In this document: one piece after another, positions 22,250-64,000 of the stretch | Numbering within the stretch: position 1 is the stretch's first letter | How the letters are laid out: each line of letters starts with the position of its first letter | NCBI GenBank assembly: GCA_963782945.1 | Contig: CAWALO010000021.1 | Span: 75,156 to 139,155 of the forward strand | DNA length: 64,000 nucleotides | Origin: an uncultured Bacteroidales bacterium | Lineage (GTDB): Bacteria > Bacteroidota > Bacteroidia > Bacteroidales > VadinHA17 | Reading direction: 5' to 3' | Translations under genes and position numbers: made by a program | The notes under the pieces: generated by a model | Database searches by the model: none | Told to the model about the DNA's origin: nothing | The model's input: the letters and a program-made list of their open reading frames with translations, nothing else

Positions 22250-23314
22250 TTAAGCAGGGGTCATCCATACAAGCTGATCATTAATATTATCGCTCAGCTT
22301 GTATGATCTCTTATGATTGCTTATTGATTCTCCGATAATTTCAATTTTATTAAGGTCAGCAACTCCTCTTCCAGCATTCGCGCAATAGTTAAGATATCCG
22401 ATTTTGGCAAAATCAATTCCCATCAGTTCAACAGCGACACGGTCTGCTGCCAGCCAGTCGGTGCCCGCCACACATACCCTGTGATCAACAGGTGTTCCGG
22501 CATTTGGACCATTGCCTTCCATACCTTCAAATCCGTCAATAAGTGCAAGATGCGGATGCAACTGCTGTGACAAAGCAAAGAGGTTATAATTGATCCCCCT
22601 GAAACCGCTTCCATGTCCAATAGGTTTGTCATTTACAGAACCCGGCTTTCTGGAGGAAGTCCAGCTGAATCCCTTATCCTTGACCGGCGCTCCGAATACA
22701 ATGTTCTTAAGCGATAATGTAGCCAGCACACGATCATGAGTTTTCATTCTGGCAACTGATACTATATAGGAATCCGGATCAAGGAGAAGACCTGACATCC
22801 TGATCGGATGGGGTCTGAAATCCTTCTCGTCAAAAACGTAAAGGGTTTCATAAGGTTCCTGATCCAGATCTACCAATTTGAGATGGTATTTTGAAACCAG
22901 CCTGAAGTATCCATAGTTGCTGAAGCCGTCAAATGTTGGCCCGCTGGCGGCTGATTCAGCAATAATGACATTATTATCCTTCTTTATTGATTTCAGAAAT
23001 TCCAGAACACCCTCAAGGGTATCAACATGAGTGGCGGCCAGCTGCACATCGGTCAGAACATTATTAGGCTTAAGCACCACACGGCGGTTGCCGATAGCTC
23101 CAGCTATTTGTTCAGAGAAGGGTTTGAGGGCACGAAAAGCAAGATCCGCCCTGTTATCACCTGAAGTTATAGCAACACCTGCGCTGTATTGTTCGGGCTG
23201 CAATAAAGAATCCAGGATATCAAAAGGTTTAATACAGGTTGCTGCGAATCCTCCTAAAACGGAGGTTTTCAAAAAATTACGCCGGCTGTAACTATTCATT
23301 AATGTAATTCTCAT
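22250..23314 (-). CDS. DUF362-domain protein with Tat leader
   Basis: 354 aa. Leader is NSYSRRNFLKTSVLGGFAATC. VVLKPNNV and ARMKTHDRVLATLSLKNIVFG resemble the PF04015 (DUF362) pattern. Confidence 0.65.
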   Translation of the reverse strand: MRITLMNSYSRRNFLKTSVLGGFAATCIKPFDILDSLLQPEQYSAGVAITSGDNRADLAFRALKPFSEQIAGAIGNRRVVLKPNNVLTDVQLAATHVDTLEGVLEFLKSIKKDNNVIIAESAASGPTFDGFSNYGYFRLVSKYHLKLVDLDQEPYETLYVFDEKDFRPHPIRMSGLLLDPDSYIVSVARMKTHDRVLATLSLKNIVFGAPVKDKGFSWTSSRKPGSVNDKPIGHGSGFRGINYNLFALSQQLHPHLALIDGFEGMEGNGPNAGTPVDHRVCVAGTDWLAADRVAVELMGIDFAKIGYLNYCANAGRGVADLNKIEIIGESISNHKRSYKLSDNINDQLVWMTPA

Positions 23315-23338: not shown

Positions 23339-24688
23339 TTATGCCAGAGAATCCCTGTTCTCATAGATCTTGGCAACGGCATTTACAATATCATCCATAT
23401 CGCTCTTGCTTCCCAGCAGAATGCTTTGGTATAAGCCTACAGCTTCATCGCACACCTTGTCATTTCCGGGAAGGATGTTTTCCTCGCGCCACTGTTTCAG
23501 CCGTGCCTCAGGGAATAATCTCTTATACCCTCTTGAGTTGAAGGCCTCCTCGAACAAGAGATCCTTATTCTGCTTCCCGTAGCCGGGAGATGCTGGAATT
23601 CCTTCAGCGTTCAGTGCCTCAATAAATTTTTCCTTAGGGATATTGTTGAATTTCTCCTTTTCATATCTGAAAGGATACAAATGATATACACCTCTCGTTG
23701 CCCCATTTGCAAGCCTGCTGGGAACAATCCCAGGTATCTTCTTAAGCTTCTCGGTGAGATAAAGCGCGTTTGAGAGTCTGATATCATTGTCTTTCTCAAT
23801 TCGTTTCATCTGGGATAAAAGGATCAGCGCCTGTGATTGCTGCATCCTGAAGTTACCTCCGCGGTAGGGATGACCAGTCACTGGTTTCATATTTCCAAAT
23901 GCCCTTCCGCAGTTATGATATGAATGACAACGGTCAAGCAGGTCACCATCCATCCCCAGGATTGCTCCACCTTCACCTGAGGGAAGGTGTTTTGAATTCT
24001 GAAAGCTGAAGCAACCCAGATCCCCAAGTGAGCCAACCCTTTTACCCTTGTATTCTGCCAGCCAGGCCTGGCACGCATCTTCCACAACCTTAAGTTTATG
24101 AGCTTTCGCCACTTTATTGACACTGTCCATGTCTACCGGAAGACCATAAATATGAACCGGAAGCAGAGCAACAGTCCTGTCGGTTATCCTCGATTCAATT
24201 TTTGATGGATCCATAAGGAAAGTGTCGGGATCAGTGTCGACAAATACAGGAAGGGCTTTGTGAAAAAAGATCGCATTATATGTTGCAATAAAAGTATACG
24301 GGGAAACCAATACCTCATCACCTGCATCAACACCAAGTGTACCAAGGGCAGTTATGAGTGCCGTTGTTCCGCTGGAAGTAGCCACGCACTGTCTGGCACC
24401 CATCAGAGCTGCATATTTCTTCTCAAATTCCTCAACATGTTCCCCGCTTCCTCTCCACCATCTTCCCGTGCGCAGCATTTCAATTATTTCCGGCTCGGCT
24501 GTCTGATCCCATACAGGCCATTCAGGCCAGGTCCCTTTATGAACCTTTTCTCCGCCCATAATTGCAAGCTTTTCCTTGCTGAAGGAACCAATCCCAAACG
24601 AGGATACTGGCCAGTTAATCATTGTCCCGATGGCTCCTGCCGTTGTGGTTGCAATAACCTGGCGACGGGTAAATTTTCTTGTTTTCAT
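23339..24688 (-). CDS. DegT/DnrJ/EryC1/StrS-family PLP-dependent aminotransferase with Tat leader
   Basis: 449 aa. Leader is MKTRKFTRRQVIATTTAGAIGTM. PLP-lysine context is GCFSFQNSKHLPSGEGGAI. Paralog of 59717..61117 and 61139..62503. Confidence 0.85.
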   Translation of the reverse strand: MKTRKFTRRQVIATTTAGAIGTMINWPVSSFGIGSFSKEKLAIMGGEKVHKGTWPEWPVWDQTAEPEIIEMLRTGRWWRGSGEHVEEFEKKYAALMGARQCVATSSGTTALITALGTLGVDAGDEVLVSPYTFIATYNAIFFHKALPVFVDTDPDTFLMDPSKIESRITDRTVALLPVHIYGLPVDMDSVNKVAKAHKLKVVEDACQAWLAEYKGKRVGSLGDLGCFSFQNSKHLPSGEGGAILGMDGDLLDRCHSYHNCGRAFGNMKPVTGHPYRGGNFRMQQSQALILLSQMKRIEKDNDIRLSNALYLTEKLKKIPGIVPSRLANGATRGVYHLYPFRYEKEKFNNIPKEKFIEALNAEGIPASPGYGKQNKDLLFEEAFNSRGYKRLFPEARLKQWREENILPGNDKVCDEAVGLYQSILLGSKSDMDDIVNAVAKIYENRDSLA

Positions 24689-37068: not shown

Positions 37069-37087
37069 ATGTATGTTTGCTCCCGAT

Positions 37088-39247: not shown

Positions 39248-39342
39248 GGCATTATGTTTAAGGCAATGTAGCTAAATTTTCACTAATTTCAATTGAAATA
39301 ACATGATTTTTCAAAGAACTGAGCCTGAACATTTTTTTATTT

Positions 39343-39382: not shown

Positions 39383-39422
39383 AATTTCCGGCAGGAGGTT
39401 TCTAATCTTAGTTTAAAGAAAT

Positions 39423-41840: not shown

Positions 41841-41953
41841 AACTTATGGAATTAAGGGGGATTGTTTATTAAATCAATTTTTATCGGTTTTTATCTTCTT
41901 AAATAATCACACTTAAAAGACAGAAAAAAAACGTTTCCGCTGCAAATAAATAA

Positions 41954-50759: not shown

Positions 50760-52154
50760 TTAAACTTCGTCATTAATCACATACGGTTTCCGGTAAACCC
50801 TTGTCAGCATTGCATCGGCTTCGGGATCGTTTACGAACTTTTCGTAATCACCCATAAATTTCAGTTCGCGGCCAAGCCTGTATGAGATATTTGCCAGGTG
50901 CGGAAGCGCTGAGGAGTAAAATCCATCAATAATATCACAATTAAGTGCCTCATTATTCCCTGCTCTTATTGCATCAATAAAATTCGCGTAGTGCTCGGTT
51001 CCTCCAGGTGCTGCAAGATATTTTGCATCGGCTGGCTTCTTCTCAGCGGTCTCTGAACCTGCGATTGGTTCCTTCCCCCTTTCTGCAAATGGTTCTTTCT
51101 CCCTTTTCCTGAACGCCTTCCAGGTTTCATCATTAAGCTCAAGGTATCCGTCTGTGCCATAAAAGATATTTCCGATTTTTATACCAAGACTTGATTCTGC
51201 ATTGGTGAATCTTCCCCTGGTTTCAAACTCAAGGATCTTCCCATCCCTGTATCTGAAAACTGACGTCTGTGTATTTGGTGTTTCCTGTTCACATTCGTCC
51301 GGACTTATTCCATATATGCCACCGGTTGAATAAACCGAAACAGGATGCTCATTTTTGTTAAGTCCCCACCGTGCAAGGTCGAACTGATGTGGTCCCTGAT
51401 TGCCGGTATCGCCGTTTCCTGTAGGCCAAAACCAGTGCCAGTTGTAATGAACGTGTTTTTCATTGTAAGGGCGCCAGGGAGCAGGTCCGAGCCATCTGTC
51501 ATAGTGCAGCGTTGCAGGAGGGGTTGTGTCTTTTGCTATTCCAAAAGAGTCGCGCGGCTTATAACACATACCCTTGGCCATATAAACAGAGCCTATCCCT
51601 CCAGCATGCAGGAATTGCATTGCTTCCATCACACTTGAGATTGAACGGTTCTGAAATCCTGTCTGCACCCTTACATTATACTTCCTGGATGCCTCAATCA
51701 TCTTCCTCCCTTCAAAAATATTATGGCATGCAGGTTTTTCAACATATACATGTTTTCCTGCCTGGCAGGCCCATATTGTTCCAAGTGCATGCCAGTGATT
51801 TGGTATGGCAAACGATACCGCGTTAATCTCCTTATCATCAAAGACCTTACGCATATCCCACTCTGTAACAGGTTTGATGCCAGTCTTGTCAAAAATGAAT
51901 TTTGATTTCTCCGCATAATACTGTTCATCGACATCACATATCGTTTTTAATCTGATATTACGGTTCTCCGTAAGATCACACCAGCTTTCTATATGAGATC
52001 CTCCCTGTCCGCGAATGCCAACTACTGCAAGAAAGAGTCTGTCATTCGCTCCGACTACTGAATCATAGGATTTTGCGCTGAATCCCATTCCTCCTATTGT
52101 TATCCCGGCGGTGCCGAGGATGCTTTTTTTGATAAATTCCCGTCTCTTTGTCAT
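50760..52154 (-). CDS. Gfo/Idh/MocA-family oxidoreductase with Tat leader
   Basis: 464 aa. Leader is MTKRREFIKKSILGTAGITIGG. Rossmann start is LAVVGIRGQGGSH. EKP motif is VYVEKPACHN. Confidence 0.85.
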   Translation of the reverse strand: MTKRREFIKKSILGTAGITIGGMGFSAKSYDSVVGANDRLFLAVVGIRGQGGSHIESWCDLTENRNIRLKTICDVDEQYYAEKSKFIFDKTGIKPVTEWDMRKVFDDKEINAVSFAIPNHWHALGTIWACQAGKHVYVEKPACHNIFEGRKMIEASRKYNVRVQTGFQNRSISSVMEAMQFLHAGGIGSVYMAKGMCYKPRDSFGIAKDTTPPATLHYDRWLGPAPWRPYNEKHVHYNWHWFWPTGNGDTGNQGPHQFDLARWGLNKNEHPVSVYSTGGIYGISPDECEQETPNTQTSVFRYRDGKILEFETRGRFTNAESSLGIKIGNIFYGTDGYLELNDETWKAFRKREKEPFAERGKEPIAGSETAEKKPADAKYLAAPGGTEHYANFIDAIRAGNNEALNCDIIDGFYSSALPHLANISYRLGRELKFMGDYEKFVNDPEADAMLTRVYRKPYVINDEV

Positions 52155-52938: not shown

Positions 52939-53973
52939 TTAAATAATCGGTTTCACTTCTGCCTTTGCCCTCTTCATCACATCTTCCATCTCAATAGCAA
53001 CACCTCCTTTAAACTTACTCTCTTCTGCGGCAGCCATAAAAGCGAAGATCTCAATGGTTTCAGCAGAGGTCACTGGTACCACTCCTGTTTTAAAGAATTC
53101 AATTATTTTTATCAGGAGCGGGTTATAGCTATGGTCTTTCCCAAGAGACAGATTGGCCTTTTCCCCGAATGCTGTTCCTCCGATGTCATATATCCCGGAG
53201 CGTATTCCCCTGAATGTACCGATCCTGTTATCATTCCACAAACCTGTGACGATATCGGTATTTTCCGTGTAAATACGTGAAACGCTCTTGCATCCTTGTC
53301 CCATGAGTGTAAAAAGCATTTCTACACCATGCACTCCATACCAGAAAAGATCCGGATGCGTCGGTTCTATGGTTGCCGGACTGTAGGTATCAGCGCCCAA
53401 TACTTTTCCTATGCTGCCTCCGGCAATTTCCTGAGTAACCTGTTCAAATCTTAAGGAGGAGGATGAAAAAACCGGAACATTGTAATGCTTTGCTGCTTCA
53501 AAAATAGCAATGGCATCGCTGAGTGAGCCAGCAACAGGCTTATCAATAAACATTCTTTTACCCGATTTAAATACCGGTAGTGCCTGTTCGAGGTGGAGCC
53601 GGCCATCATTAGTTTCAAGCAACACAACATCGACTTTTGCCAGAAGTTCTTCAATTGAATTCGTTATTTCAACTCCAAGGTTTTTAACTTCCTCAGTATA
53701 ACCTGGTATCCTTTCAGCGCTTGATTTGATATCCCTGCTTCCCCGGGGATAGGCAGCTGTAATTTTGTAGCCTCCGAATTCAGGACCAGCATCAGCACTG
53801 TTAAGAGCTTTGGTGAAGGCGATAGAATGAGAGGTGTCAAGTCCGATAATCCCGACTTTTCCTCCATCGGTACTGTTAATGCCAAATATTGGCTGAAAGT
53901 TGCCAGCCAGGCCCAGGGATATTCCTCCCATTGAGGCTGTCTTAACAAAATCACGGCGGTTAAATCTGTTCAT
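52939..53973 (-). CDS. Gfo/Idh/MocA-family oxidoreductase (short form) with Tat leader
   Basis: Start placed at ATG 53973 (MNRFNRRDFVKTASMGGISLGLAG) rather than the track start at 54012. Rossmann start is VGIIGLDTSHS. EKP-like motif is MFIDKPVA. Confidence 0.8.
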   Translation of the reverse strand: MNRFNRRDFVKTASMGGISLGLAGNFQPIFGINSTDGGKVGIIGLDTSHSIAFTKALNSADAGPEFGGYKITAAYPRGSRDIKSSAERIPGYTEEVKNLGVEITNSIEELLAKVDVVLLETNDGRLHLEQALPVFKSGKRMFIDKPVAGSLSDAIAIFEAAKHYNVPVFSSSSLRFEQVTQEIAGGSIGKVLGADTYSPATIEPTHPDLFWYGVHGVEMLFTLMGQGCKSVSRIYTENTDIVTGLWNDNRIGTFRGIRSGIYDIGGTAFGEKANLSLGKDHSYNPLLIKIIEFFKTGVVPVTSAETIEIFAFMAAAEESKFKGGVAIEMEDVMKRAKAEVKPII

Positions 53974-54064
53974 AATATCCAAATAAGGTAAATGGTGAAA
54001 AAAGTACTCCAAATTAAGAAAAATTAAGTAGGTTTGATACAGAAATCACTAAATCAGATCCGCA

Positions 54065-55468
54065 ATGTCATCAAAAACAACCCGCCGTTCATTTCTTGCC
54101 CAGACAGGCATGATATCCGCAGGGATCACCCTGGGCGTAAATCCTTTAAGTGCAGCCAGCTATAACAGGATAAAAGGGGCCAATGAAAAGATCCGGGTAG
54201 GTTTCATTGGTGTCGGAAATCGGGGAACCCAACTCCTGAATATCTTTATGGATCAGCCTGATGTTGAAATTGCAGCATTATGTGACGTTTATGAACCGTA
54301 TATTAACCGTGACCGTTCCAGGGTTGATCCAAGATATATCAAAGACAGACCCGGACAGATCCCGGAAATGGGAGAATCTTTTCCGAATAAGGTCGAAAGA
54401 TATTCTGACTACAGGAAGTTACTGGAAAACAAGACTATAGATGCTGTATGCATAGCAACACCTGACCACTGGCATGCACTTATGACTATCGATGCAATAA
54501 ACGCAGGTAAAGATGTTTATATAGAGAAACCTCTTTCAAAGACTATCCATGAAGGCAGAGCAATGGTAAATGCCGGTAAGAACAGCAAACAAATTGTGAC
54601 CGTAGGGCTGAACAGGCGGGGTGCTCCCACTTTTCAGAAGCTTGCTAAGGATATTCCTTCAGGGAAGATAGGAAAAGTTACATATACGAGCGCATGCCAT
54701 GTAGGTAACATGTTTCCTTCAGGCATAGGTAAACTGAAACCGGAAAATCCTCCAAAAGATTTCAACTGGGATGCCTGGCTGGGTCCACGGGCCTTCAGGC
54801 CATATCAATATAACATAGCTCCGTATATGTTCCGGTGGTGGGAAGATTATTGCAATCAGATCAGTAATCAGGGCGTTCATTATCTCGATCTGATCAGGTG
54901 GCTGCTCAACGAAGAGGCTCCTGCAGCCGTAAGTGCGATGGGAGGGAAATATGCAGTAGATGATGACCGTACCATTCCGGATACCTTTCAGGTTACCTAT
55001 GAATTTGCTTCAGGATCTATAGCTACAGTAAAAGTTTTAGAGGCAAGCTCAGGCAGTTTCATTCCGTATGGTTTCATTGAAATGCGTGGAACTAAAGGGA
55101 CACTTTATACAAATGAAAATGATTATAAGATTGTTCCTGCCAGTCCCGGGCAATTCCAAAGCTGGGATAAACTTATGGAAGCTGAAGAATATAGCCTGGA
55201 GACAAAGGACACCCTCCTTGCAGACAATAGTTATCTCAACAGCACTGCAAACCTCATCCGTAATTTCCTCGATTGTATAAAATCACGGGAAACACCATTT
55301 TCAACCCTGGAAACCGGACATCGCTCGACCTCTCTCGCTCATATGGCTACAATTTCAATGTTAACAAAACAGAGGCTGGAATGGGATCCGGCAAAGGAAC
55401 GTTTCACCAACTCAGAAGAGGCCAATAAGATGCTGCATTATGAGTACCGGAAACCCTATAAATTATAA
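54065..55468 (+). CDS. Gfo/Idh/MocA-family oxidoreductase with Tat leader
   Basis: 467 aa. Leader is MSSKTTRRSFLAQTGMISAGITLG. Rossmann start is VGFIGVGNRG. EKP motif is VYIEKPLS. Confidence 0.85.
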   Translation: MSSKTTRRSFLAQTGMISAGITLGVNPLSAASYNRIKGANEKIRVGFIGVGNRGTQLLNIFMDQPDVEIAALCDVYEPYINRDRSRVDPRYIKDRPGQIPEMGESFPNKVERYSDYRKLLENKTIDAVCIATPDHWHALMTIDAINAGKDVYIEKPLSKTIHEGRAMVNAGKNSKQIVTVGLNRRGAPTFQKLAKDIPSGKIGKVTYTSACHVGNMFPSGIGKLKPENPPKDFNWDAWLGPRAFRPYQYNIAPYMFRWWEDYCNQISNQGVHYLDLIRWLLNEEAPAAVSAMGGKYAVDDDRTIPDTFQVTYEFASGSIATVKVLEASSGSFIPYGFIEMRGTKGTLYTNENDYKIVPASPGQFQSWDKLMEAEEYSLETKDTLLADNSYLNSTANLIRNFLDCIKSRETPFSTLETGHRSTSLAHMATISMLTKQRLEWDPAKERFTNSEEANKMLHYEYRKPYKL

Positions 55469-57028
55469 CTAAGCATACCACTGCCTTTCGCGCTTCAGGT
55501 CTGAATTAAGTATATTATAGGCCAGATTGGCATTTTCAACAACCTGAAAATCAAACATTCCAACACATGCGAAATCGGCTCCGCTGGCAAATGCGTGCCT
55601 GAAGCCCTCTTCCGGTTTTATCGCACCGGCTGCCAGTACTTTATATGCAATCCATGGAGTTGTATTTTCCCTGAAGAAATCGGCAACTACCTTATCCGAC
55701 ATGCACCAGATATTGTCGTGTGCCATATTATGATCATCTCCGTCCACAGGCAGCTCCGGGTTTGCCGGATCAATGGGTGTTGCAGACCAGTAATTATGGC
55801 TGTGAAAGGTTTTCATGTAGAAATCAGGCTTGATCCCATGTTCAATGCAGGTTTTCAGAACCATCATGGAATGAGCAGCGGTTCCGGCAATAAGTCCTTG
55901 CTTCTGAATAAGTTCAACAGGCTTACGAAGAAAATCAATCTGCTTGTCGGTAACAATTTTGTCGGCAATACCTCCCATTACAAACGCACCGATTGCGCCA
56001 TGATCGATAGCAGTCTGAACATTGGACAGATCTTCTCCTTTGGGATATGTTTGCGCCAGCCACTGGACCTTACCTCCCCTTTTCCAGTATTTTTCAAGAA
56101 TCCTAATTGTGTTTTCATCACAACGGAAAATGGCAGTGTTGATGCCGCATGCTTCACACAGCCACAACGTTTCAATCACTTTTTCATCGCTGAAATACTT
56201 TTTAAGCCAGGTGGAAACATAAATTAGGTCGCGTGCATGAGCAAAGCCGCTGATAAGATTCCCGCCGATCATGATCCGGCTAAGGGTTCTTTCTTTAATC
56301 TTACCTGAAGGAACCTGTCCTTTCAGTTCACTTATTGACTGGGACTTTCCCATCAGAAGTGATGCGCTGCTCACAGCATCAGTTTTAGATGCAAGGTTTT
56401 TCTCTTCAAAACTTATCCATCCACGCTTTTTCGCCATCCCGAAAAAGGCAGCTCCGAAAAGTGGTAACACTGCAAGGTTCTTAATCAACTCTCTCCGGGA
56501 AGTGTCATATGATTCAAGTATCTCATGATTATCCTGTGACGGGAACTTTTCATCTTTCCGTTTTTCATGCCAATATGCTGCAAGCCTCTGCATGCCCCAG
56601 AGTGCCTCCTTCCTGAGGGAAGCCAGGGCAATAAGGACAATTGCCTCAATGAGATTGTAATTGAGTATGTAAAAATGACTGGTTGAAGGAATTGTTGAAG
56701 GTACAAACGGAGGATTTGCCACATAGTAAAGCAAAAGAAGCAATGCTCCTGAAATAGCGGCTGGTCTGGTAAACAATCCGACAAACAGGCAAAATCCTAT
56801 TATTATCAATCCCCAGATATTCAGAAAATCAACAATATGCAATGTAGTGCTATTACCAATAAGCCAATGGAAAAACCCTGAAAACAGCCATTTTGATTCC
56901 ATCAGATAAAGTGAGGATGACCAGTTTGGATTAGCCAGCTTGGCCAGGCCTTCATAAAGGAAATGCCAGCCTATTACAATCCTCAGAGCCGAGAGAAGCC
57001 ATATTGTGATACTATTTGTTTTTTTCAT
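55469..57028 (-). CDS. DoxX-like membrane domain fused to an uncharacterised ~340-aa domain
   Basis: Start placed at ATG 57028 (MKKTNSIT...); the track start is a TTG. The N-terminal part ALRIVIGWHFLYEGLAKL plus four hydrophobic segments resembles DoxX. An internal TSRRELIKNLAVLPLFGAAFFGMA segment is followed by a soluble domain that I cannot assign. Confidence 0.6.
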   Translation of the reverse strand: MKKTNSITIWLLSALRIVIGWHFLYEGLAKLANPNWSSSLYLMESKWLFSGFFHWLIGNSTTLHIVDFLNIWGLIIIGFCLFVGLFTRPAAISGALLLLLYYVANPPFVPSTIPSTSHFYILNYNLIEAIVLIALASLRKEALWGMQRLAAYWHEKRKDEKFPSQDNHEILESYDTSRRELIKNLAVLPLFGAAFFGMAKKRGWISFEEKNLASKTDAVSSASLLMGKSQSISELKGQVPSGKIKERTLSRIMIGGNLISGFAHARDLIYVSTWLKKYFSDEKVIETLWLCEACGINTAIFRCDENTIRILEKYWKRGGKVQWLAQTYPKGEDLSNVQTAIDHGAIGAFVMGGIADKIVTDKQIDFLRKPVELIQKQGLIAGTAAHSMMVLKTCIEHGIKPDFYMKTFHSHNYWSATPIDPANPELPVDGDDHNMAHDNIWCMSDKVVADFFRENTTPWIAYKVLAAGAIKPEEGFRHAFASGADFACVGMFDFQVVENANLAYNILNSDLKRERQWYA

Positions 57029-57151
57029 GCAGACATATTTAATCAATCCAAAATCAGTCAAAAGATAATGTCTTCTTGTTATATTTCAAACAAACATGAT
57101 AACTATTACATTTTGATGTGATTCTATTTTATATCTGGCATCAGCCGGTTG

Positions 57152-58039
57152 TTAGTCAAACAGGTGAAGCGGATTCTCAATTACCTTCTCCCTTGTCATA
57201 AGTTTTGGCTGGATTGAAGAGGGTGCTTTTTCAAGCCATTCCTCCTTAACTTTTATGGGTGTTTGCATTATATAAGGCTTACATTTCGGGATTGCAGCAA
57301 TAGACTTTTTTGCACCTTCATAAAGAGCTTTCCGAACCTCTTCAAATGGATAGAGAACAGCTGATTCGCGTGCCAGACCCTGCTTGGTGGCTACTGTCAC
57401 AACACCCTCCCCGAAAAACTTCCTGGCTTCCCGGCAGGCAGCTTCATCACCTGTGACAAGGATTGGAGGTACGCCATAATAACCGGCCACAGAAGCAGAT
57501 TGTGCCAGCTCTCCTGATTCAACACCATTGTACCAGTACCTGTTCTCTGATTCGGAGGATTGGGTATGGCACAAAACTCCATCGGGAGTTCCATTCATTG
57601 CATGGAACCCAAATAAAACCATTCCCGAATAAGATTTATCAAGACTCCAGGTGTTATTTTGAGGTCGTGGCAATCCTGTTACATATTTTGCGCCTGCAAC
57701 CATCAGTTCCGGAATCATTGCCTGGTTCCCATGCCCGTCAATTATCAGTATTTCGGTGGCACCACCATCACGAAGACCTCGAACTACAGCTGCGAGATCT
57801 CCCATGAAATATTCGCATGCCTTGAGATTTTCAGGGCTGCCTTTATCACGTGTCTGCGAAAATCTGTATACGCCGCTGACACCTTCAAGATCCGTTTCAA
57901 TGTAGATCTTTATCTGGGCTGTCAGTGAATCTAATCCTGTTAACAGAATCAGGGTTACAAGAGTAAAAATCTTCAATGCTGATTTCACTATTGATAACAG
58001 GTGAATCTTTTTTGTTAAATCTATTCTCTTCATATTCAA
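57152..58039 (-). CDS. Peptidase M55 (DppA-type D-aminopeptidase) family protein with N-terminal export/anchor segment
   Basis: 295 aa. IYIETDLEGVSGV matches the DppA N-terminal metal-binding block. Here it is preceded by a ~40-aa hydrophobic leader. Confidence 0.7.
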   Translation of the reverse strand: MNMKRIDLTKKIHLLSIVKSALKIFTLVTLILLTGLDSLTAQIKIYIETDLEGVSGVYRFSQTRDKGSPENLKACEYFMGDLAAVVRGLRDGGATEILIIDGHGNQAMIPELMVAGAKYVTGLPRPQNNTWSLDKSYSGMVLFGFHAMNGTPDGVLCHTQSSESENRYWYNGVESGELAQSASVAGYYGVPPILVTGDEAACREARKFFGEGVVTVATKQGLARESAVLYPFEEVRKALYEGAKKSIAAIPKCKPYIMQTPIKVKEEWLEKAPSSIQPKLMTREKVIENPLHLFD

Positions 58040-58067
58040 TAATTTATCAATGTTTTAAAAGCTTTTC

Positions 58068-58169
58068 TTAACCACAGAGTGGCACGGAGTTGGCACGGAG
58101 TTACACGGCTTTTACTTCCTGCATAACTCCGTGTAACTCTGTGATAACTCCGTGAAACACAGTGGTTAA
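58068..58169. repeat. Word-built hairpin (cacggagtt/aactccgtg family)
   Basis: ttaaccacagagtggcacggagttggcacggagttacacgg - loop - ataactccgtgtaactctgtgataactccgtgaaacacagtggttaa. It lies 16 nt after the stop of 58185..59564. Confidence 0.8.
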
Positions 58170-58184
58170 ATTCTTCATTTTATA

Positions 58185-59564
58185 TTATTTTTTAAATGGC
58201 CCCGGAAAGCTTATAAGATCAGTTCTGGTCTTTCCGTTTTCTGTTATTCTTGCCAGGGTATATACTGTACCGTCGTCACCAATTGCAATAGAGTTGACAT
58301 ATAGCGGACGCTGTCCGTCAGGGTAGAAGACAGCACCATTGTCGAGATATTTTCCAGTAGGAATATCATATGTTATCAGATGCAGGTCTTCCAGCCCTTT
58401 TGCCTCTCCCTTTGCAGTCGAGGTTGCCCCCATAACACGCTTACCATCAATGTAAATTGGTCCCCCGGTAAGGTAATAGATTGTCCTTCCGTCGGGCCCC
58501 AGCTTGAAGCCCAGATAACCATAGCTGAACTGGTCGCCCATACCTGTCAGTTTTGAAGGAACAGAGGTTAATCGTTCAAGAACATCTATCCGCTTTATCG
58601 CCGGGTCGAATCTGAACAGGTAACCGGAGTTGCCATGAACGCCATAAATCTTTTTCTCAGGGGCATACCAGAAAACCTGACGCCAGTTATAAGCCATACT
58701 TCCTGAGGTAAATATTTCATATGTCCCGAAGTAGTCCTTCTTCATATCCTCACCTTCTACAGTTTCAACTTGATCACTACCCAGTTGAAGACTTTTTATC
58801 TGACCCTCCGCATTTGTGAAATATACTGAGCCATTATCAGTATCTATTGCAATTGACCGGCATACAACACGAAAATCTTTTCCAAAACCATCTTCCCCCA
58901 TGCCGGTGGCCGGCCCAAGGTCTTTAAGTTCTTTCTTCGCCACATCATACCTGAACAGATATCCTGTCGGCCAGGAAAGGCCGTAGATCAGTCCTCTTGC
59001 CACATCCATATTCATTGTAATAATTCCCTCGTTATGCGGCCCGATTCCCAGATCCTCAAAGGTCTTTGTTTTCATATCGTATGCAAGCAGGTGGCCACCG
59101 CGGTATGCCTTATAATCTCCGGTAGGAAGACCGGTTTTTTCCATTCCGTTTATAATGCTGTAATACCCGAGATGGGTAGCAAAATATAACTTCCCTCCCG
59201 ATTCAACAAAGTTTACATGACTCTTACCCTGGGCCACCACCTTCATATCCTTTTCACCGCATATCTCCGTAAGATCGCCAAGGTGTTCAGTTGTTCCCGT
59301 CTTTGGATCGAAGGAGTACATCTGTCCTGCAATATCCATCAGCTGTGAGCAGAGAACATAATATATCTTTCCGTCGCTGGCAGATGAAATCCCATTATAG
59401 GTATCGTGTGCATGTTCAAAACCTGAATTATAGACTGTGGCAATTATCCGGGCATCAGGAGTTGAGACAGGATCAGTCTTTGCTATTGGTTGCGGAGACT
59501 GGCTGCATGATACTGAAAGTAGTGAGATAAACACCGGAATAATAGAAAGGAATTGTAGCTTCAT
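58185..59564 (-). CDS. Hypothetical beta-propeller-like lipoprotein
   Basis: 459 aa. Lipobox FISLLSVSCS. Recurrent G..Y(F/Y)-type blade-like repeats (GKIYYV, GKLYFAT, GSVYFTN, KKIYGVH, RTIYYLT, GTVYTLA). No family name assigned. Confidence 0.55.
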   Translation of the reverse strand: MKLQFLSIIPVFISLLSVSCSQSPQPIAKTDPVSTPDARIIATVYNSGFEHAHDTYNGISSASDGKIYYVLCSQLMDIAGQMYSFDPKTGTTEHLGDLTEICGEKDMKVVAQGKSHVNFVESGGKLYFATHLGYYSIINGMEKTGLPTGDYKAYRGGHLLAYDMKTKTFEDLGIGPHNEGIITMNMDVARGLIYGLSWPTGYLFRYDVAKKELKDLGPATGMGEDGFGKDFRVVCRSIAIDTDNGSVYFTNAEGQIKSLQLGSDQVETVEGEDMKKDYFGTYEIFTSGSMAYNWRQVFWYAPEKKIYGVHGNSGYLFRFDPAIKRIDVLERLTSVPSKLTGMGDQFSYGYLGFKLGPDGRTIYYLTGGPIYIDGKRVMGATSTAKGEAKGLEDLHLITYDIPTGKYLDNGAVFYPDGQRPLYVNSIAIGDDGTVYTLARITENGKTRTDLISFPGPFKK

Positions 59565-59716
59565 TTTAAAATTGTTAAATCAGAGTTTGTCTTTATATTT
59601 ATTTGCACCCCATCCTAACCTTCCCCAGGGGGAGGAACAAAACCTTCCCATGGGGAAATTAGAAAGGGGTAAATCGTAAAAAGCATGACAAATTTTGTTT
59701 CCAAAATACTGAAGTA

Positions 59717-61117
59717 TTACATAGCTACCGGTTTGGGGGTCTCATTTCTATTTTTAATCTTTTCAGCATTCTTACGTATTCTTTCAATTGCGGAGGCAAC
59801 ATCATCCAGATCGGATTTTTCAGCCAGAAGCATATTTTGCTGGATCCAAACAGCCTCTACACATAATTCATCGTTTTCCGGACATTCATTTTCAGCTTTG
59901 AATTTTTCAAAATCAAGCATCTCCTTCGGGTACATCTTTTTGAAATTCTTCGATTGGAAAGCATTTTCAAGGTATGGTTGCTTATTCAGGAAGGGAGAAT
60001 ATCCGCTTAAATTTGGAATTCCTTCTGCGGTAAGAGCCTCGAGAAAAAGATCTCTTGATAAACCCTTGAATTCTTCTTTTTTGTAACGGAAACAGAACAT
60101 ATGAAAGGCAGCTCTCGTTACATTATCATAGAGTTTATATGGTCTTATTCCAGGGATACCCTTTATCTGAGACTTCAGGTATGCGGCATTTGTATTCCTC
60201 AGGGAGGTTTGTTCGTCAAGTACACCTAACTGGGCAAGTCCGATAGCTGCCTGATATTCTGTTATGCGGAGCTTAGTGGCAAGCATTACTGAACCGGCAC
60301 CTACTGCACCAATTACTGCTCCATGAGGAAATCCTACATTATGATATGAATAGCACCTGTCCATAAATTCTTCATCATCGCTAACAATTGCTCCTCCTTC
60401 TCCAAGAGGCAGATGTTTGGAATTCTGAAAACTAAAACAGCCCACATTGCCGAATGTCCCTACTTTCTTATTGTCTATTTCTGCCAGCCAGGCCTGGCAG
60501 GCATCTTCTATTACAAGGAGGTTATGCTTCTTAGCTATCTCCATTATTTTCACCATATTGGCTGGCATCCCAAGGATATGAACCGGCATAATCGCCCTTG
60601 TACGGGGGGTGATCTTCGCTTCAATTTTAGCGGGGTCAATCTGATATGTTTCCGGATCCACATCCACAAATACAGGCATTGCTCCGGCAATCAGAACAGC
60701 CTGAATGGTTGAAATCCAGGTATACGGAGTAACAATAACCTCGTCACCAGCTCCTATATCAAGCTGAACAACGGAGGTTATCAGCGCATTAGTGCCGTTG
60801 ACCACCGCCAGGCAGCGCTTTGTACCGATTGTTTCAGCCCATTTATTTTCGAATTCAGTAACTACTTCCGCCCTTGACCAGACTCCGCTTCTGAGAACCT
60901 TAAGCACCTGTTCCTCATACACTTCAGGTTTCCACTGCGGCCATACTGGCCATTCCTTTGTCCTGATCTTCTGTCCGCCAAGGATAGCAGGAACTCCGGT
61001 ATCAGCTGCACAATTGGCAAGAAGTGCCGGCCCTGCACTCAATGCTACTGCTGCACCTATGCCGGCCATTGAATTTTTCTTTACAAATTCACGCCTTGTA
61101 TAATTACTTTTTGACAT
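59717..61117 (-). CDS. DegT/DnrJ/EryC1/StrS-family PLP-dependent aminotransferase with Tat leader
   Basis: 466 aa. Leader is MSKSNYTRREFVKKNSMAGIGAAVALSAG. PLP-lysine context is GCFSFQNSKHLPLGEGGAI. Confidence 0.85.
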   Translation of the reverse strand: MSKSNYTRREFVKKNSMAGIGAAVALSAGPALLANCAADTGVPAILGGQKIRTKEWPVWPQWKPEVYEEQVLKVLRSGVWSRAEVVTEFENKWAETIGTKRCLAVVNGTNALITSVVQLDIGAGDEVIVTPYTWISTIQAVLIAGAMPVFVDVDPETYQIDPAKIEAKITPRTRAIMPVHILGMPANMVKIMEIAKKHNLLVIEDACQAWLAEIDNKKVGTFGNVGCFSFQNSKHLPLGEGGAIVSDDEEFMDRCYSYHNVGFPHGAVIGAVGAGSVMLATKLRITEYQAAIGLAQLGVLDEQTSLRNTNAAYLKSQIKGIPGIRPYKLYDNVTRAAFHMFCFRYKKEEFKGLSRDLFLEALTAEGIPNLSGYSPFLNKQPYLENAFQSKNFKKMYPKEMLDFEKFKAENECPENDELCVEAVWIQQNMLLAEKSDLDDVASAIERIRKNAEKIKNRNETPKPVAM

Positions 61118-61138
61118 ATATTTCAGATTTGATTTATC

Positions 61139-62503
61139 TTATATTGAATTCAGCTTATCCCTGTTATCATATACTTTCATTACTGCGTTTATCAGGTCAT
61201 CCATATCAGCAAGCGATCCAAGAAGCGGACCGGATGCCCATAGCATAACCATTTCATCACACACCTGGTCGCATTTGGGAAGGAACAATTCCTCTTTGAA
61301 TTTTTTCAGACGGGCGTTTCCATACATCTTCTTGTATTCCGGCAATGTCATTATATGATCCGTCCATGGCTCCCTGTGTAATCCGTTAGCTATATATGGG
61401 CTAAGGCCGATACCTTCGGCAGCGATGGCTTTGAAGAATTTTTCACGGGGGGCATTATTGAAAAGTTCCTTTTTATAAGACCATGTATAGAGGTAGAAAG
61501 AACCTGCTGTGGTCCCTTCATAAAGCTTCTGGGGAACAAGGCCCGGGCAGCCCTTTAATTTTTCGGTCAGATACCTGGCATTCCTGTTGCGGATCTCATG
61601 CCGTTCCCTGACACCAGGCAACTGCCCCAGAAGGACAGCTCCTTCAAACTCATTCATCCTGTATTTTGAACCAATGGTAAGTGTCTTCCCGTTTTTTGCA
61701 GTCCCGTGATTCATAACAGTATAACAATTTTCCATCACGTCATCATTATGGCTTACTATTGCACCGCCTTCCCCGCAGCAAAAAACTTTGCTGGTCTGGA
61801 AACTGAAGCATCCTGCATCACCTATGGTTCCAAGCAGTTTACCCTGGTACTCTGCAAGAAAAGCCTGACAGGAATCTTCAATAACTTTAAGATTATATTT
61901 CTTTGCAAGCGCCATAATACTCTGCATATCACAAGGCTGACCCATTATATGTACAGGCATAAGAGCTTTGGTGCGTTTTGTGATCTTTCTTTCCACATCT
62001 GCAGGATCGAGCTGGAATGATTCAGTGTCAAGATCTGCCATAACAGGAAGCGCACGGCTTACCAGTATGCCCTGAATGGTTCCCGGATCGGTATATGGAG
62101 AAGTAATGACTTCGTCACCCGGACCAATGCCAAGTGCCTCAACCACAGTATTCAAAGCCTGCGTACCCGATCCTGTACTCACGCTGGTTTTTGTCCCGTA
62201 GATTTTTGCAAACTCCTGCTCGAATGTCGGCACAGTTCCATTTGGTGATTGGATCCTGCACCAGATACCACTGCGGGTGGTCTTAACAACTTCCTCAACA
62301 ATCCGTTCGTCGACATAGGGCCATTCGGGCCAGACTTTATCTTTGGCAACCGGAGTACCGCCAAGTATTGCCAGTTTGTCAGGATTACCGCTGCCAATGG
62401 TAATATTCCTGAATGCCGGAATATAGCCTGAAGCAGCAACAGCTGCCGAACCGGCAGAGAGAGTTGCAATAAAATTCCGCCTGGAAAAGCTTTTTTTCTT
62501 CAT
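61139..62503 (-). CDS. DegT/DnrJ/EryC1/StrS-family PLP-dependent aminotransferase with Tat leader
   Basis: The track start at 62527 is a TTG. The ATG at 62503 gives MKKKSFSRRNFIATLSAGSAAVAASG. PLP-lysine context is GCFSFQTSKVFCCGEGGAI. It lies 21 nt upstream of its paralog. Confidence 0.85.
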   Translation of the reverse strand: MKKKSFSRRNFIATLSAGSAAVAASGYIPAFRNITIGSGNPDKLAILGGTPVAKDKVWPEWPYVDERIVEEVVKTTRSGIWCRIQSPNGTVPTFEQEFAKIYGTKTSVSTGSGTQALNTVVEALGIGPGDEVITSPYTDPGTIQGILVSRALPVMADLDTESFQLDPADVERKITKRTKALMPVHIMGQPCDMQSIMALAKKYNLKVIEDSCQAFLAEYQGKLLGTIGDAGCFSFQTSKVFCCGEGGAIVSHNDDVMENCYTVMNHGTAKNGKTLTIGSKYRMNEFEGAVLLGQLPGVRERHEIRNRNARYLTEKLKGCPGLVPQKLYEGTTAGSFYLYTWSYKKELFNNAPREKFFKAIAAEGIGLSPYIANGLHREPWTDHIMTLPEYKKMYGNARLKKFKEELFLPKCDQVCDEMVMLWASGPLLGSLADMDDLINAVMKVYDNRDKLNSI

Positions 62504-62561
62504 TTCACCTGATGTTAATAATTTCAATATGTTTAGTTTTTTAATTAGCAGACTGGAAACA

Positions 62562-63950
62562 CTATTGTGCTATTTGCTTAACACCTGCCTTCAGTGCCAG
62601 CTTTTTGATTTCATCAAATATCATGACCTCAATGCCGGGTGCCCATTTGGCAGGCATGCCATATACCATCTGTGATGATTCTCCTTCATAGCCGCCCTCC
62701 TTAAGTATTGTTTCCGAGGGAATGTAAGCCATGTCATCATTGACATATCCCAATACAAATATATCGGGCCCGAATAACTTTTTTAACCCGATTGAGTATT
62801 CAATAACCAGCTCCCCTCCCAGCGCTATAACTGCCTGATCTCCAAGCTTCCAGACCTGAACCGGATAAGGATATGAAGTTATGAGAGAGCCGTTGTTTCT
62901 AAGTGCCCTGAGCTGATTTGAGGCCCAGCTCTTCTGGTATCCGTCTTTTTCACTTTCTATTTTAATAAGAGCATCCATTGCCGGAGGGTCCGAGAATTTC
63001 AGATTCACTTCCGAATAGGAAGCAGAAAGTACAGGGTCAAGTTTTTTCATCTCCTCACTTAATACTCTTTCAACCGATGCTGCCAGTTCTTTTCCATACT
63101 GACGGGCAAGAGGTATTGTTCTGCGGGGTAATGGATTCTGATCTGCCCCTGCTCCCTGGAAAAACAATGCAGTCACTCCCGGATGTGATTTTTCAAGTTC
63201 AATCTGTGCAAATCCGGGGTAATCACCTGAGATCTGGTAAATATCCAGTACAGTAGAGTGACAGGCATATCCAAAAGCAATTGCCATGAGACTTCCCGAT
63301 TCGTCAGTAACCTTAAGGACAGGAACTGCATAATCATTTGGTCCGTTTAAAACAGTCTGAGCGGTCAGTGATGCTTCAATGTTGTTGCGTCTGTTTACCT
63401 GGAAGCGTGTAATCCCGGACCTGGAAAAGATCTGAGCCGGAACCATGGCACGAATAGCATCACCGGTAAGATCAACAATCTTCTTTTCCAGATAATCAGA
63501 GTACTCCTGTATAACCTTCAGCTGCTTCTCATCAAGAGGATAAATGTCGAAAAGGGCCTCCATGAGAACTGGTCCGGAGTGTGTATGTGAATAACTTAAG
63601 ATTATCTGTGATCTGGTAAGCCCGTATCTGACCGCAATCTGATTCCTTATCCGGTCTGACATCTTCTTCGGAAACCCAAGGAGGTCGGAGGTGATAAGGA
63701 CGGCCTTCTTCCCTTTTGCATCCTCAACAGCAAGAACTTTTACCCATAAGTCAGTCAGGATGCCGTCAGAGGGATGGGTGCGTGATGCATATCCCGCGAG
63801 CCAGATAGGTCCCTCAGGGGTTATTATTTCCCGTGAGATGCCAGCTTTCCATCCATTTGAATTTGCCGGATGACCAGCTGCAGCAAGTGAATAATTTAAA
63901 TAACAGATCAGTAAGCCGGAAAAAATAATAAACGAGCCAGATTTCTTCAT
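62562..63950 (-). CDS. Neutral/alkaline non-lysosomal ceramidase N-terminal-domain-like hydrolase, exported
   Basis: About 462 aa from ATG 63950, with a signal peptide. GWKAGISREIITPEGPIWLAGYASRTHPSDGILTDLWVKVLAVED...VLITSDLLGF follows the pattern of the ceramidase_alk N-terminal domain as I remember it. Confidence 0.55.
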   Translation of the reverse strand: MKKSGSFIIFSGLLICYLNYSLAAAGHPANSNGWKAGISREIITPEGPIWLAGYASRTHPSDGILTDLWVKVLAVEDAKGKKAVLITSDLLGFPKKMSDRIRNQIAVRYGLTRSQIILSYSHTHSGPVLMEALFDIYPLDEKQLKVIQEYSDYLEKKIVDLTGDAIRAMVPAQIFSRSGITRFQVNRRNNIEASLTAQTVLNGPNDYAVPVLKVTDESGSLMAIAFGYACHSTVLDIYQISGDYPGFAQIELEKSHPGVTALFFQGAGADQNPLPRRTIPLARQYGKELAASVERVLSEEMKKLDPVLSASYSEVNLKFSDPPAMDALIKIESEKDGYQKSWASNQLRALRNNGSLITSYPYPVQVWKLGDQAVIALGGELVIEYSIGLKKLFGPDIFVLGYVNDDMAYIPSETILKEGGYEGESSQMVYGMPAKWAPGIEVMIFDEIKKLALKAGVKQIAQ

Positions 63951-64000
63951 CAACGGATGATGTTAGTAATGGTTCCCCGTGAATATTCCCGAAAAATATC
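63950..64000 (-). CDS. 3' end (16 codons) of an unidentified gene continuing past the right edge
   Basis: The reverse strand reads ...DIFREYSRGTITNIIR* with stop TGA at 63950..63952. This overlaps the downstream ATG by 1 nt (TGATG coupling). Too short to name. Confidence 0.35.
   Translation of the reverse strand, partial: DIFREYSRGTITNIIR

Follow-up and report, generated by a model that had tools for sequence, protein, structure and literature searches.

Enzymes of the DegT family are textbook cytoplasmic, biosynthetic enzymes that make unusual amino sugars and aminoglycosides. Several function as couples with a Gfo-type dehydrogenase, including NtdC/NtdA (kanosamine), WbpB/WbpE (UDP-ManNAc3NAcA), and GnnA/GnnB (UDP-GlcNAc3N). 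In these couples, two folds interconvert a ring hydroxyl, a ketone, and an amine; the couples are cytoplasmic, use phosphorylated or nucleotide-linked substrates, and operate in the aminating direction. BtrR/BtrS and RbmB, the L-glutamine:2-deoxy-scyllo-inosose aminotransferases of aminoglycoside biosynthesis (PDB 2c7t, 5w71, 5w70), are also cytoplasmic, leaderless, and biosynthetic. They are encoded in antibiotic gene clusters and their substrates are free cyclitols, not NDP-sugars.

Two other systems are relevant because of where they function. PtaA and PvdN, which tailor pyoverdine in Pseudomonas, are periplasmic PLP enzymes that are exported by Tat, folded and with their cofactor, and turn over in the periplasm (PMC6206403). 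Their target is a glutamate residue of the siderophore, and their role is biosynthetic. In Bacteroides thetaiotaomicron, the periplasmic 3-keto-glycoside pathway BT2157-BT2159 consists of Gfo-type dehydrogenases with Tat leaders and a DUF1080 hydrolase, and one of these Gfo-type enzymes, BT2158, is proposed to be periplasmic with bound NAD(P) (PMC8121099).

We analyzed a stretch of 64,000 nucleotides from an uncultured Bacteroidales bacterium (the window; Table 1) that encodes three DegT proteins, each with a twin-arginine (RR) leader. It contains a Gfo/DUF1080 trio (626-4407) like that of BT2157-BT2159, a pathway that, unlike the window, has no aminotransferase. In the window, unlike in the biosynthetic couples, DegT and Gfo proteins alike have RR leaders, and their gene context points to the opposite, catabolic direction. 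On balance, we think it rather likely that DegT-A, DegT-B, and DegT-C are Tat-exported PLP aminotransferases in periplasmic catabolic PUL-like modules that deacylate, transaminate, and then reduce N-acylated amino sugars or aminocyclitols.

Table 1. Features of the window and their positions.
Feature	Position	Strand	Description
DegT-A	59717..61117	(-)	466-aa DegT-family PLP aminotransferase; PF01041 E 1.2e-93
DegT-A leader	60998-61117		residues 1 to ~40
DegT-A RR	61091-61096		
DegT-A PLP lysine	60416-60418		K234
DegT-B	61139..62503	(-)	454-aa paralog; PF01041 E 1e-84; 21 bp upstream of DegT-A
DegT-B RR	62477-62482		
DegT-B PLP lysine	61787-61789		K239
DegT-C	23339..24688	(-)	449-aa third paralog; PF01041 E 7e-90
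DegT-C RR	24662-24667		
DegT-C PLP lysine	23990-23992		K233
Ceramidase-like amidohydrolase	62562..63953	(-)	putatively Zn-dependent; Sec-type signal; PF04734 E 3e-11
Beta-propeller lipoprotein	58185..59564	(-)	signal ending LSVSC; weak Kelch and DUF6923 Pfam matches only
Peptidase M55	57152..58039	(-)	D-aminopeptidase family; signal peptide; secondary partner; PF04951 E 4e-56
DoxX-domain membrane protein	55469..57061	(-)	530 aa; secondary partner; PF07681
Gfo5	54065..55468	(+)	Tat-leader Gfo/Idh/MocA (Pfam); leader TRRSFLA; syntenic in loci L006 and L013
Gfo4	52939..54012	(-)	Tat-leader, 357 aa; PF01408; leader NRRDFVK
Gfo3	50760..52154	(-)	Tat-leader Gfo/Idh/MocA (Pfam); leader KRREFIK; syntenic in locus L006
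RR-leader Gfo/Idh/MocA	47644-49002		
RR-leader Gfo/Idh/MocA	2932-4407		
RR-leader Gfo/Idh/MocA	626-2119		
DUF362 protein	22250..23314	(-)	RR leader; PF04015 E 3e-28; 24 bp downstream of DegT-C

All three proteins belong to the DegT family, as had been proposed from the sequence. DegT-A, DegT-B, and DegT-C scored 314.6, 285.3, and 302.2 bits, respectively, against PF01041 (cut-off 19.8 bits; profile positions 3-324 of 360), and their genes are on the minus strand, with exactly the positions and N-terminal strings given in the original prediction. The public record places the start of DegT-B at the ATG at 62503; the TTG at 62527 is only a mechanical ORF start. The paralogs are 41% (A and B), 42% (A and C), and 45% (B and C) identical. 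Each contains GCFSFQ(N/T)SK and an intact (I/V)ED(A/S)CQA. In alignments with BtrR, the lysine of the first motif matches the PLP lysine and the second motif is also matched; this lysine and the PLP-holding Asp and Gln likewise align with their equivalents in 5w71. The lysine and the ED-x-x-Q motif were invariant in the 20 orthologs compared. A Schiff-base lysine marks the DegT aminotransferases; ColD/E1-type dehydratases have a histidine at that position.

We found that the RR leader is a conserved property of these proteins. The two arginines are residues 8-9 in all three (DegT-B counted from the ATG), in the motifs TRREFVK (DegT-A), SRRNFIA (DegT-B), and TRRQVIA (DegT-C) at residues 7-13, and are followed by an uncharged stretch of 22-28 residues (24 in DegT-A and 28 in DegT-C). 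An S/T-RR-x-F-V/I-K leader was present at residues 7-13 in 118/120 DegT-A orthologs, and 14/14 DegT-B orthologs in related loci had an RR leader. Among 73 leader motifs from 80 loci, all six Arg codons were used for both arginines. Leaderless relatives, and BtrR, align with the DegT proteins only from residues 44-51 onward, after the leader. In an AlphaFold2 (AF2) model of DegT-A, residues 1-39 had a pLDDT below 50 and were outside of the predicted fold, which begins at about residue 41. (This model, from a shallow alignment, had a pLDDT of 68, adequate for ranking folds and not for pocket analysis.) We considered that the leader might be an annotation artefact; conservation in orthologs, the start of homology, and the synonymous change of Arg codons rule this out.

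The region after the RR, originally described as hydrophobic, is weakly so. The best 12-residue Kyte-Doolittle mean was 1.2-1.8 in ten RR proteins of the window (1.25-1.82 in the three DegT proteins), and the Sec and lipoprotein signals of the same window were more hydrophobic (2.25-3.6). None of 20 other window proteins examined had an RR motif. Together with the conservation in orthologs, these results speak against a chance pattern. The Pfam model TAT_signal (PF10518; cut-off 22.7 bits) gave 17.5 bits for DegT-B and no match for DegT-A or DegT-C, a result that weakens the case for Tat without excluding it, because the model has only 21 positions and low sensitivity. These sequences show that the RR leader is translated and conserved, adding ~40 residues with Tat-like properties to the N-terminus. 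We infer that DegT-A, DegT-B, and DegT-C are exported by Tat.

When the mature regions were placed in a distance tree (neighbour-joining, midpoint-rooted, without support values), all leader-bearing proteins grouped in a single clade, adjacent to leaderless relatives, which begin only at residue ~44. DegT-A, DegT-B, and DegT-C fell in three separate subclades, and that of DegT-C also contained the leader-bearing protein P0122. The nearest solved structures, by sequence and by fold, were BtrR and RbmB; Fic25 and AHBA synthase were also among the best. NtdA, to which the original prediction had compared these proteins, was among the PDB sequence matches, and WbpE was among the sequence and fold matches; the closest characterised relatives are instead the free-cyclitol enzymes BtrR and RbmB. 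The likeness to these two extends over query residues 44-450 (196-204 bits; fold E 4e-29) and includes a C-terminal extension and the PLP Lys, Asp, and Gln; at 31% identity it is a resemblance, not membership, and does not fix the substrate. In contrast to BtrR and RbmB, the window DegTs have an RR leader and are in catabolic PUL-like loci, and there were no aminoglycoside cluster genes in the window or in related loci. The NCBIfam equivalogs for NDP-sugar enzymes (PseC, WecE, ArnB, LegC, DesI, RfbH) gave at best 162.7-191.1 bits, against cut-offs of 375-650 (among them 189 bits against 423). Public names such as 'perosamine synthetase' are therefore unsupported. The leader-bearing DegT proteins are best explained as an old, diversified clade in the part of the family that includes BtrR, RbmB, and AHBA-synthase-like enzymes, a wing whose substrates are free cyclitol or sugar-like amines and not nucleotide-linked ones.

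We surveyed the context of DegT genes in 80 related loci, 45 of them full-length. Every neighbour family that recurred in at least 4 of the 80 loci was catabolic or extracytoplasmic. Glycosyltransferase and NDP-sugar genes did not recur among the 80, and there was no flippase or acyltransferase set in the related loci. These gene contents support the view that the DegT context is neither O-antigen nor nucleotide-sugar biosynthesis; a conventional context of either kind was looked for and not found. SusC/D and NagP/NagA/NagB-like genes were frequent. In Cytophagales, the gene order was SusC/SusD, GntR, Gfo4, DegT, ceramidase-like, propeller, DUF7133, Gfo, MFS, NagA, NagB-like, with NagA above its equivalog cut-off and the MFS transporter above the gluP subfamily cut-off (best match, NagP). 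Two of the related loci (L006 and L013) were syntenic with the window. A promoter and terminator scan of 55000-64000 was uninformative; the sigma-70 consensus is unsuited to Bacteroidota.

In the conserved core of these loci, DegT was joined by a beta-propeller lipoprotein and by one ceramidase-like amidohydrolase or two, a grouping that the original prediction did not mention. The ceramidase-like gene, 34-58 bp upstream of DegT-B in the window, adjoined DegT-A in 34-41 of the 80 loci, and orthologs of the propeller gene, 152 bp downstream of DegT-A, did so in 37-43; these two are the most conserved partners. The best 120 homologs of the propeller were 80-100% identical, and those with names were all labelled hypothetical. 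A PDB search with its sequence gave no match, and the PDB structures that resembled its AF2 model (pTM 0.82) were all generic propellers of the Kelch, WD40, and YncE kinds (TM <=0.5), which gave no functional clue. The ceramidase-like, M55, esterase, and propeller neighbours have Sec or lipoprotein signals.

All six of the Tat-leader Gfo/Idh/MocA proteins that had been predicted in the window were found. Gfo genes were present in 24/45 full-length loci, and 53/61 Gfo ORFs had an RR. Orthologs of Gfo4 were found in 16/80 loci. In seven of these (L059, L068-L071, L077, L080) they were adjacent and on the same strand, and in Runella, Arsenicibacter, and Dyadobacter the next gene downstream of them was DegT-A. 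The original prediction raised the question of whether Tat-DegT and Tat-Gfo genes stay adjacent. They are frequently together; the tightest partners are the ceramidase-like and propeller genes (ceramidase-like, propeller, or U486 genes at DegT in 32/45 full-length loci). We dropped the DegT/Gfo pair as the conserved unit in favor of DegT, ceramidase-like, and propeller. The best NCBIfam match of Gfo5 and Gfo3 was the BT2158-type glycoside 3-dehydrogenase (BT_2158_fam, NF058561), with 142.2 and 139.7 bits, respectively, against an equivalog cut-off of 750, so they are not BT2158 orthologs.

We propose the following pathway. The DegT enzymes would be folded and loaded with PLP in the cytoplasm and then exported by Tat. 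Exported amidohydrolases, ceramidase-like and other, would first deacylate the nitrogen of the substrate, which would be an amino sugar, a diamino sugar, or a compound of the aminocyclitol type. DegT would then transaminate the exposed amine of the ring to give a ketone, its cofactor alternating between PLP and PMP. Tat-exported Gfo/Idh/MocA proteins with bound NAD(P) would reduce or otherwise process the keto product. In many genomes, a NagP-type MFS transporter would then take up the resulting GlcNAc-like sugar, and NagA and NagB-like enzymes would complete its conversion. This would be the reverse of the dehydrogenase/aminotransferase logic of WbpB/WbpE, GnnA/GnnB, and NtdC/NtdA. Within this proposal we infer export, the deaminating direction, the class of substrate, the order of steps, and a periplasmic amino acceptor. 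Partners varied by lineage, with NagA/NagB in some, KduI/UxaC/SDR in others, and DoxX/M55 in still others, so the substrate may not be a single compound, and no neighbour fixes it. KduI, UxaC, SDR, and an SGSH_C sulfatase were found in a minority of loci; they are only a lead toward a glycosaminoglycan or heparan substrate.

A broader version, which we hold tentatively and think rather doubtful, is that amine removal in the periplasm is widespread: the Tat-DegT clade, Tat-Gfo proteins, and ceramidase-like deacylases would make ordinary sugars from N-acylated amino or diamino sugars or aminocyclitols prior to import. DegT (PLP/PMP) and Gfo (NAD(P)/H) would each have a non-exchangeable cofactor, whose cycle would be completed without leaving the periplasm, for instance through keto-sugar/amino-sugar or keto-acid/hydroxy-acid couples. 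Bacteroidota and Planctomycetota would then have a new type of catabolism of glycans or antibiotic-like compounds.

It is also possible, and in our view unlikely, that DegT is exported and that the amine is of a lipid or amino-acid type: sphingoid bases released by the ceramidase-like enzymes, or D-amino acids or peptide amines released by M55. The tightest partners are ceramidase-like amidohydrolases, in which the HTHSGP metal motif is retained, M55 and DoxX genes are beside DegT-A in 9 loci, and Fic25, a close structural relative, uses an amine derived from an amino acid. Many other C-N hydrolases also recur near the DegT genes. However, the neutral ceramidases 4wgk and 2zws match only weakly, with E 1e-7 and over the N-terminal domain alone, the best-matching characterised enzymes work on cyclitols, and the NagP/NagA/NagB-like, KduI/UxaC, SusC/D, DUF1080, and Gfo neighbours suggest carbohydrate metabolism.

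An exported DegT could also have a biosynthetic or remodelling role, in which Tat-Gfo would carry out the oxidation and DegT would then aminate a periplasmic or envelope glycan or produce an aminated signal or osmolyte. To our knowledge, all characterised DegT enzymes are biosynthetic. Transaminases are reversible, and oxidation by Gfo followed by amination by DegT is the standard pairing, with NtdA and WbpE among the PDB matches. We think this role quite improbable: the loci contain SusC/SusD, regulators of the GntR or LacI type, importers, and catabolic enzymes like NagA/NagB, and do not contain a glycosyltransferase, flippase, or acyltransferase set. It is most improbable that these are ordinary cytoplasmic NDP-sugar aminotransferases with an RR segment that is incidental or upstream of the true start, as the automated names (including 'dTDP-4-amino-4,6-dideoxygalactose transaminase') and the missed TAT_signal cut-off might indicate, given the missed equivalog cut-offs, a leader limited to one clade and conserved as protein through synonymous change, and exported neighbours without nucleotide-sugar or O-antigen genes.

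A search of full-text literature found no characterised periplasmic DegT enzyme, in agreement with the original prediction. PtaA and PvdN, which we take to be in PLP enzyme families other than DegT, are precedents for a Tat-exported periplasmic PLP enzyme. Overall, the earlier interpretation is partly supported. PtaA poses the question of how PLP is regenerated from PMP in the periplasm (PMC6206403), which exported DegTs would share. If our preferred reading, periplasmic deamination of sugars or cyclitols, is correct, this question of transaminase recycling beyond the cytoplasm would become sharper. DegT chemistry would shift to the periplasm and to catabolism, and a large, conserved clade would be seen to be mislabelled as perosamine synthetase and the like. 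Removal of a ring amine would be a missing step in the newly recognised periplasmic oxidative breakdown of glycans in Bacteroidota, and the abundant ceramidase-like and propeller proteins would have a function. Cultured carriers exist (Runella, for example Runella limosa DSM 17973; Dyadobacter, for example Dyadobacter frigoris; Larkinella; Nibrella; Fodinibius), so the idea is directly testable.

The DUF362 protein encoded next to DegT-C scored 20.1 bits against TAT_signal, under the cut-off. The DUF362-DegT pair recurs in three of the related loci (L007-L009).

We found that the three DegT genes of the window lie exactly where the original prediction had placed them, on the minus strand (see table), and that all three products belong to family PF01041, with E values of 1e-84 to 1e-94, far over the Pfam cut-off. 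The lysine of GCFSFQ(N/T)SK and the motif (I/V)ED(A/S)CQA are retained in DegT-A, DegT-B, and DegT-C. These residues match the PLP-binding residues of BtrR in alignment and are invariant in 20 orthologs. Given the start of DegT-B at the ATG in the public record, the twin arginine occupies residues 8-9 in each protein. The three proteins are 41-45% identical to one another and are old paralogs.

Four lines of evidence indicate that the N-terminal twin-arginine (RR) leader is real. The sequence S/T-RR-x-F-V/I-K followed by an Ala/Gly-rich stretch was present in 118 of the 120 closest DegT-A homologs (71-91% identity, 455-461 aa); the two exceptions were a fragment and a mis-called start. Conserved starts downstream of the RR segment, which the original prediction had named as contrary to it, were not seen. 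DegT-B orthologs in related loci had the leader in 14 of 14 cases. Among the 73 leader motifs retrieved from 80 loci, all six Arg codons are used at both arginines, indicating that the leader is translated. The leader also appears to be an addition to the fold: Pfam homology begins at residues 67-72 and the BtrR alignment at residues 51-54, relatives of 400-420 aa that lack the leader start at about query residue 44 ('LAILGG'), and residues 1-39 of DegT-A form a low-confidence helix outside the fold in the AF2 model. The best 12-residue Kyte-Doolittle mean of the h-region was 1.2-1.8 in the window's ten proteins with RR leaders, compared to 2.25-3.6 for Sec and lipoprotein signals in the same window, and this lower hydrophobicity is Tat-like rather than Sec-like. 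The 21-position Pfam TAT_signal model gave 17.5 bits for DegT-B, under its cut-off of 22.7, and no match for DegT-A or DegT-C. All six Gfo/Idh/MocA proteins predicted to carry RR leaders were found, as was one DUF362 protein with such a leader; the other 20 window proteins examined had none. The three DegT proteins are likely to be exported aminotransferases.

The leader marks a widespread clade. A search of 1.84 billion cluster representatives with DegT-A retrieved 61,220 family members. When the mature regions of 122 full-length sequences (119 search matches and the three window paralogs) were placed in a neighbour-joining tree, every leader-bearing protein fell in one clade, with DegT-A, DegT-B, and DegT-C in three different subclades. 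The only entries inside this clade not scored as leader-bearing were N-terminally truncated records and two whose leaders a strict filter had missed. Because the tree is without support values, we regard a single origin of the leader as provisional. With one genome taken per species, a pattern-limited scan yielded at least 596 loci, the majority in Bacteroidota: environmental Bacteroidales, Ferruginibacter, Balneolales such as Fodinibius, and Cytophagales including Runella, Larkinella, Dyadobacter, Nibrella, and Arsenicibacter. Other carriers were Pirellulaceae, Aminicenantes, and Anaerolineales MAGs. Another, more distant RR-leader lineage, 30-33% identical to DegT-A, adjoins the A type in four loci, and in two of these (L026 and L029) it comes immediately after SusC/SusD.

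The closest solved relatives of the DegT proteins, by both sequence and fold, are BtrR and RbmB, which are L-glutamine:2-deoxy-scyllo-inosose aminotransferases (PDB matches). Fic25 and AHBA synthase come next and NDP-sugar enzymes rank lower. These four enzymes share a C-terminal extension with the window proteins and, a side activity of AHBA synthase excepted, their substrates are not linked to nucleotides. At about 31% identity, the match to BtrR and RbmB is only a resemblance and not a substrate assignment. The scores fell short of every NCBIfam equivalog cut-off for nucleotide-sugar aminotransferases (best scores of 162.7-191.1 bits against cut-offs of 375-650), and the labels 'perosamine synthetase' and 'dTDP-4-amino-4,6-dideoxygalactose transaminase' given in public records are thus unsupported. 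The fold-search matches also included a 'heterooligomeric aminotransferase' of Serratia sp. ATCC 39006 composed of two DegT-type chains (PDB 8y96), a precedent for the tandem A and B genes forming a heteromer.

We compared gene neighbourhoods across 80 related loci, of which 45 had full 10-kb flanks. The pairing of Tat-DegT with Tat-Gfo genes that had been anticipated was partly borne out: a Gfo-family gene was present in 24 of the 45 full loci (34/80), and 53 of 61 Gfo ORFs had the RR motif, but more full loci (32/45) had a ceramidase-like gene, its paralog U486, or a beta-propeller gene. Individually, the ceramidase-like amidohydrolase was found in 25 full loci (34-41/80), the propeller lipoprotein in 28 (37-43/80), and U486 in 11 (16/80). 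The ceramidase-like protein retains the HTHSGP motif of neutral ceramidases. U486 is more divergent (Pfam Ceramidase_alk, E 2e-4). It is directly upstream of the ceramidase-like gene in the syntenic loci L006 and L013 and is therefore expected here just beyond the window end, upstream of 63953; the operon is probably cut by the window end at the ceramidase-like gene. The window's ceramidase-like, M55, esterase, and propeller proteins start with Sec or lipoprotein signals. At least two tandem DegT paralogs co-occur in loci, with as many as four in L019.

In Runella, Larkinella, Arsenicibacter, and relatives, one strand encodes a 3-hydroxyacyl-CoA dehydrogenase-like protein, a creatininase-like protein, SusD, SusC, and GntR. 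The other encodes the Tat-leader protein Gfo4, DegT, the ceramidase-like and propeller proteins, a PVC-type haem protein, Gfo, an MFS transporter over the gluP subfamily cut-off (best match NagP), an amidohydrolase over the NagA equivalog cut-off, and, last, a NagB-like protein under its cut-off. Neighbours in other lineages include KduI/IolB, UxaC, SDR, Amidohydro_2, carbon-nitrogen hydrolase, and esterases, and in some lineages a sulfatase with an N-sulphoglucosamine sulphohydrolase C-domain. DoxX and M55 aminopeptidase are neighbours in some loci, as in the window. Neighbour families present in at least 4 of the 80 loci included no glycosyltransferase, nucleotidyltransferase, or NDP-sugar dehydratase or epimerase. 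The recurrent neighbours of DegT-A are non-biosynthetic, and O-antigen biosynthesis, the context that the original prediction had named as contrary to it, is not the context of these genes.

Taking the family, catalytic residues, leader, clade, and gene context as observed, we infer export, direction, substrate, and amino acceptor. The most economical reading of the loci, and one that we moderately favor, would be a periplasmic catabolic route. Tentatively, the order could be deacylation, transamination, and reduction, acting on amino sugars or cyclitols. Exported amidohydrolases would take off an N-acyl group, DegT transamination would turn the ring amine so released into a ketone, and Gfo-type enzymes with bound nicotinamide cofactor would reduce or further process the ketone. 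The product would then be imported, as a GlcNAc-like compound in genomes with NagP, NagA, and NagB-like genes. Tandem DegT paralogs would fit a heteromeric enzyme or substrates bearing multiple amino groups. The proposed direction is the reverse of that of the biosynthetic dehydrogenase/aminotransferase couples, which include NtdC/NtdA, WbpB/WbpE, and GnnA/GnnB. NtdA and WbpE were among the sequence or fold matches of the DegT proteins.

There are precedents for parts of such a route. PtaA and PvdN of Pseudomonas are established Tat-exported PLP enzymes whose periplasmic recycling of PLP is likewise unexplained (PMC6206403). BT2158 is a Tat-leader Gfo-type enzyme of a 3-keto-disaccharide route, proposed to work in the periplasm with bound NAD(P) (PMC8121099), and a trio of window genes resembles the BT2157-BT2159 3-keto-glycoside module. 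We found no description of an exported or periplasmic DegT in full-text searches of literature largely outside subscription journals. The new element would be the presence of the DegT family in the periplasm, in the form of a large clade that has conserved partners of its own.

Features of the window and of related loci (locus coordinates are the locus's own)
Feature	Location	Coordinates	Strand	Remark
DegT-A	window	59717-61117	-	466 aa
DegT-B	window	61139-62527 (ORF); ATG 62503 in public record	-	454 aa from ATG
DegT-C	window	23339-24688	-	449 aa
Tat-leader Gfo	window	626-2119	-	trio member
DUF1080 3-keto-disaccharide hydrolase	window	2140-2901	-	trio member
Tat-leader GH109-C-domain oxidoreductase	window	2932-4407	-	trio member
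Membrane protein	window	4431-5591	-	386 aa
PUL-like block	window	5715-21542
SusD	window	12068-13828
SusC	window	13848-17021
Penicillin amidase	window	17034-19178
DUF362 protein	window	22250-23314		RR leader
HGLS-family protein	window	24849-25730	-	no signal peptide
Efflux and regulatory region	window	26134-44329
PQQ dehydrogenase	window	37088-39247
U486	L006	5694-7100
Distant RR-leader DegT	L019	5470-6879
Distant RR-leader DegT	L026	11424-12800
Distant RR-leader DegT	L029	11419-12774
Distant RR-leader DegT	L056	7087-8412
Leaderless DegT	L010	6384-7607	-
Leaderless DegT	L016	6397-8615 (with leaderless Gfo)	-

In two loci (L010 and L016), a leaderless DegT of 404-408 aa lies on the opposite strand beside an MFS transporter and the module of exported DegT, propeller, and Gfo; in L016 it is paired with a leaderless Gfo (332 aa). 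These genes may represent the cytoplasmic equivalent of the pair in the periplasm.

The DUF362 gene is 24 bp from DegT-C, and a DUF362 gene whose product is 65-69% identical is directly upstream of a DegT-A-type gene in three Rikenellaceae-labelled MAGs (L007-L009). This suggests a putative second conserved Tat-Tat pair. The HGLS-family gene (2-oxoadipate dioxygenase/decarboxylase-like), lies 160 bp upstream of DegT-C, and a tie to the supply of keto acids would be speculative. The membrane protein had no significant Pfam match; a weak full-length alignment to Acyl_transf_3 (E 0.038) was seen, and the protein is a possible transmembrane acyltransferase of the NagX/HGSNAT type, which would bear on how amino sugars are handled. 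The PUL-like block also contains two DUF2961 proteins, a beta-lactamase-fold protein, Amidohydro_2, DUF6786, and a LacI regulator, and its combination of glycan uptake genes with C-N hydrolases is an unusual mix. The efflux and regulatory region encodes an outer-membrane efflux protein, an HlyD protein, an ABC ATPase, three large MacB/FtsX permeases, a sigma-54 response regulator, and the PQQ dehydrogenase, which has an inserted cytochrome c domain.
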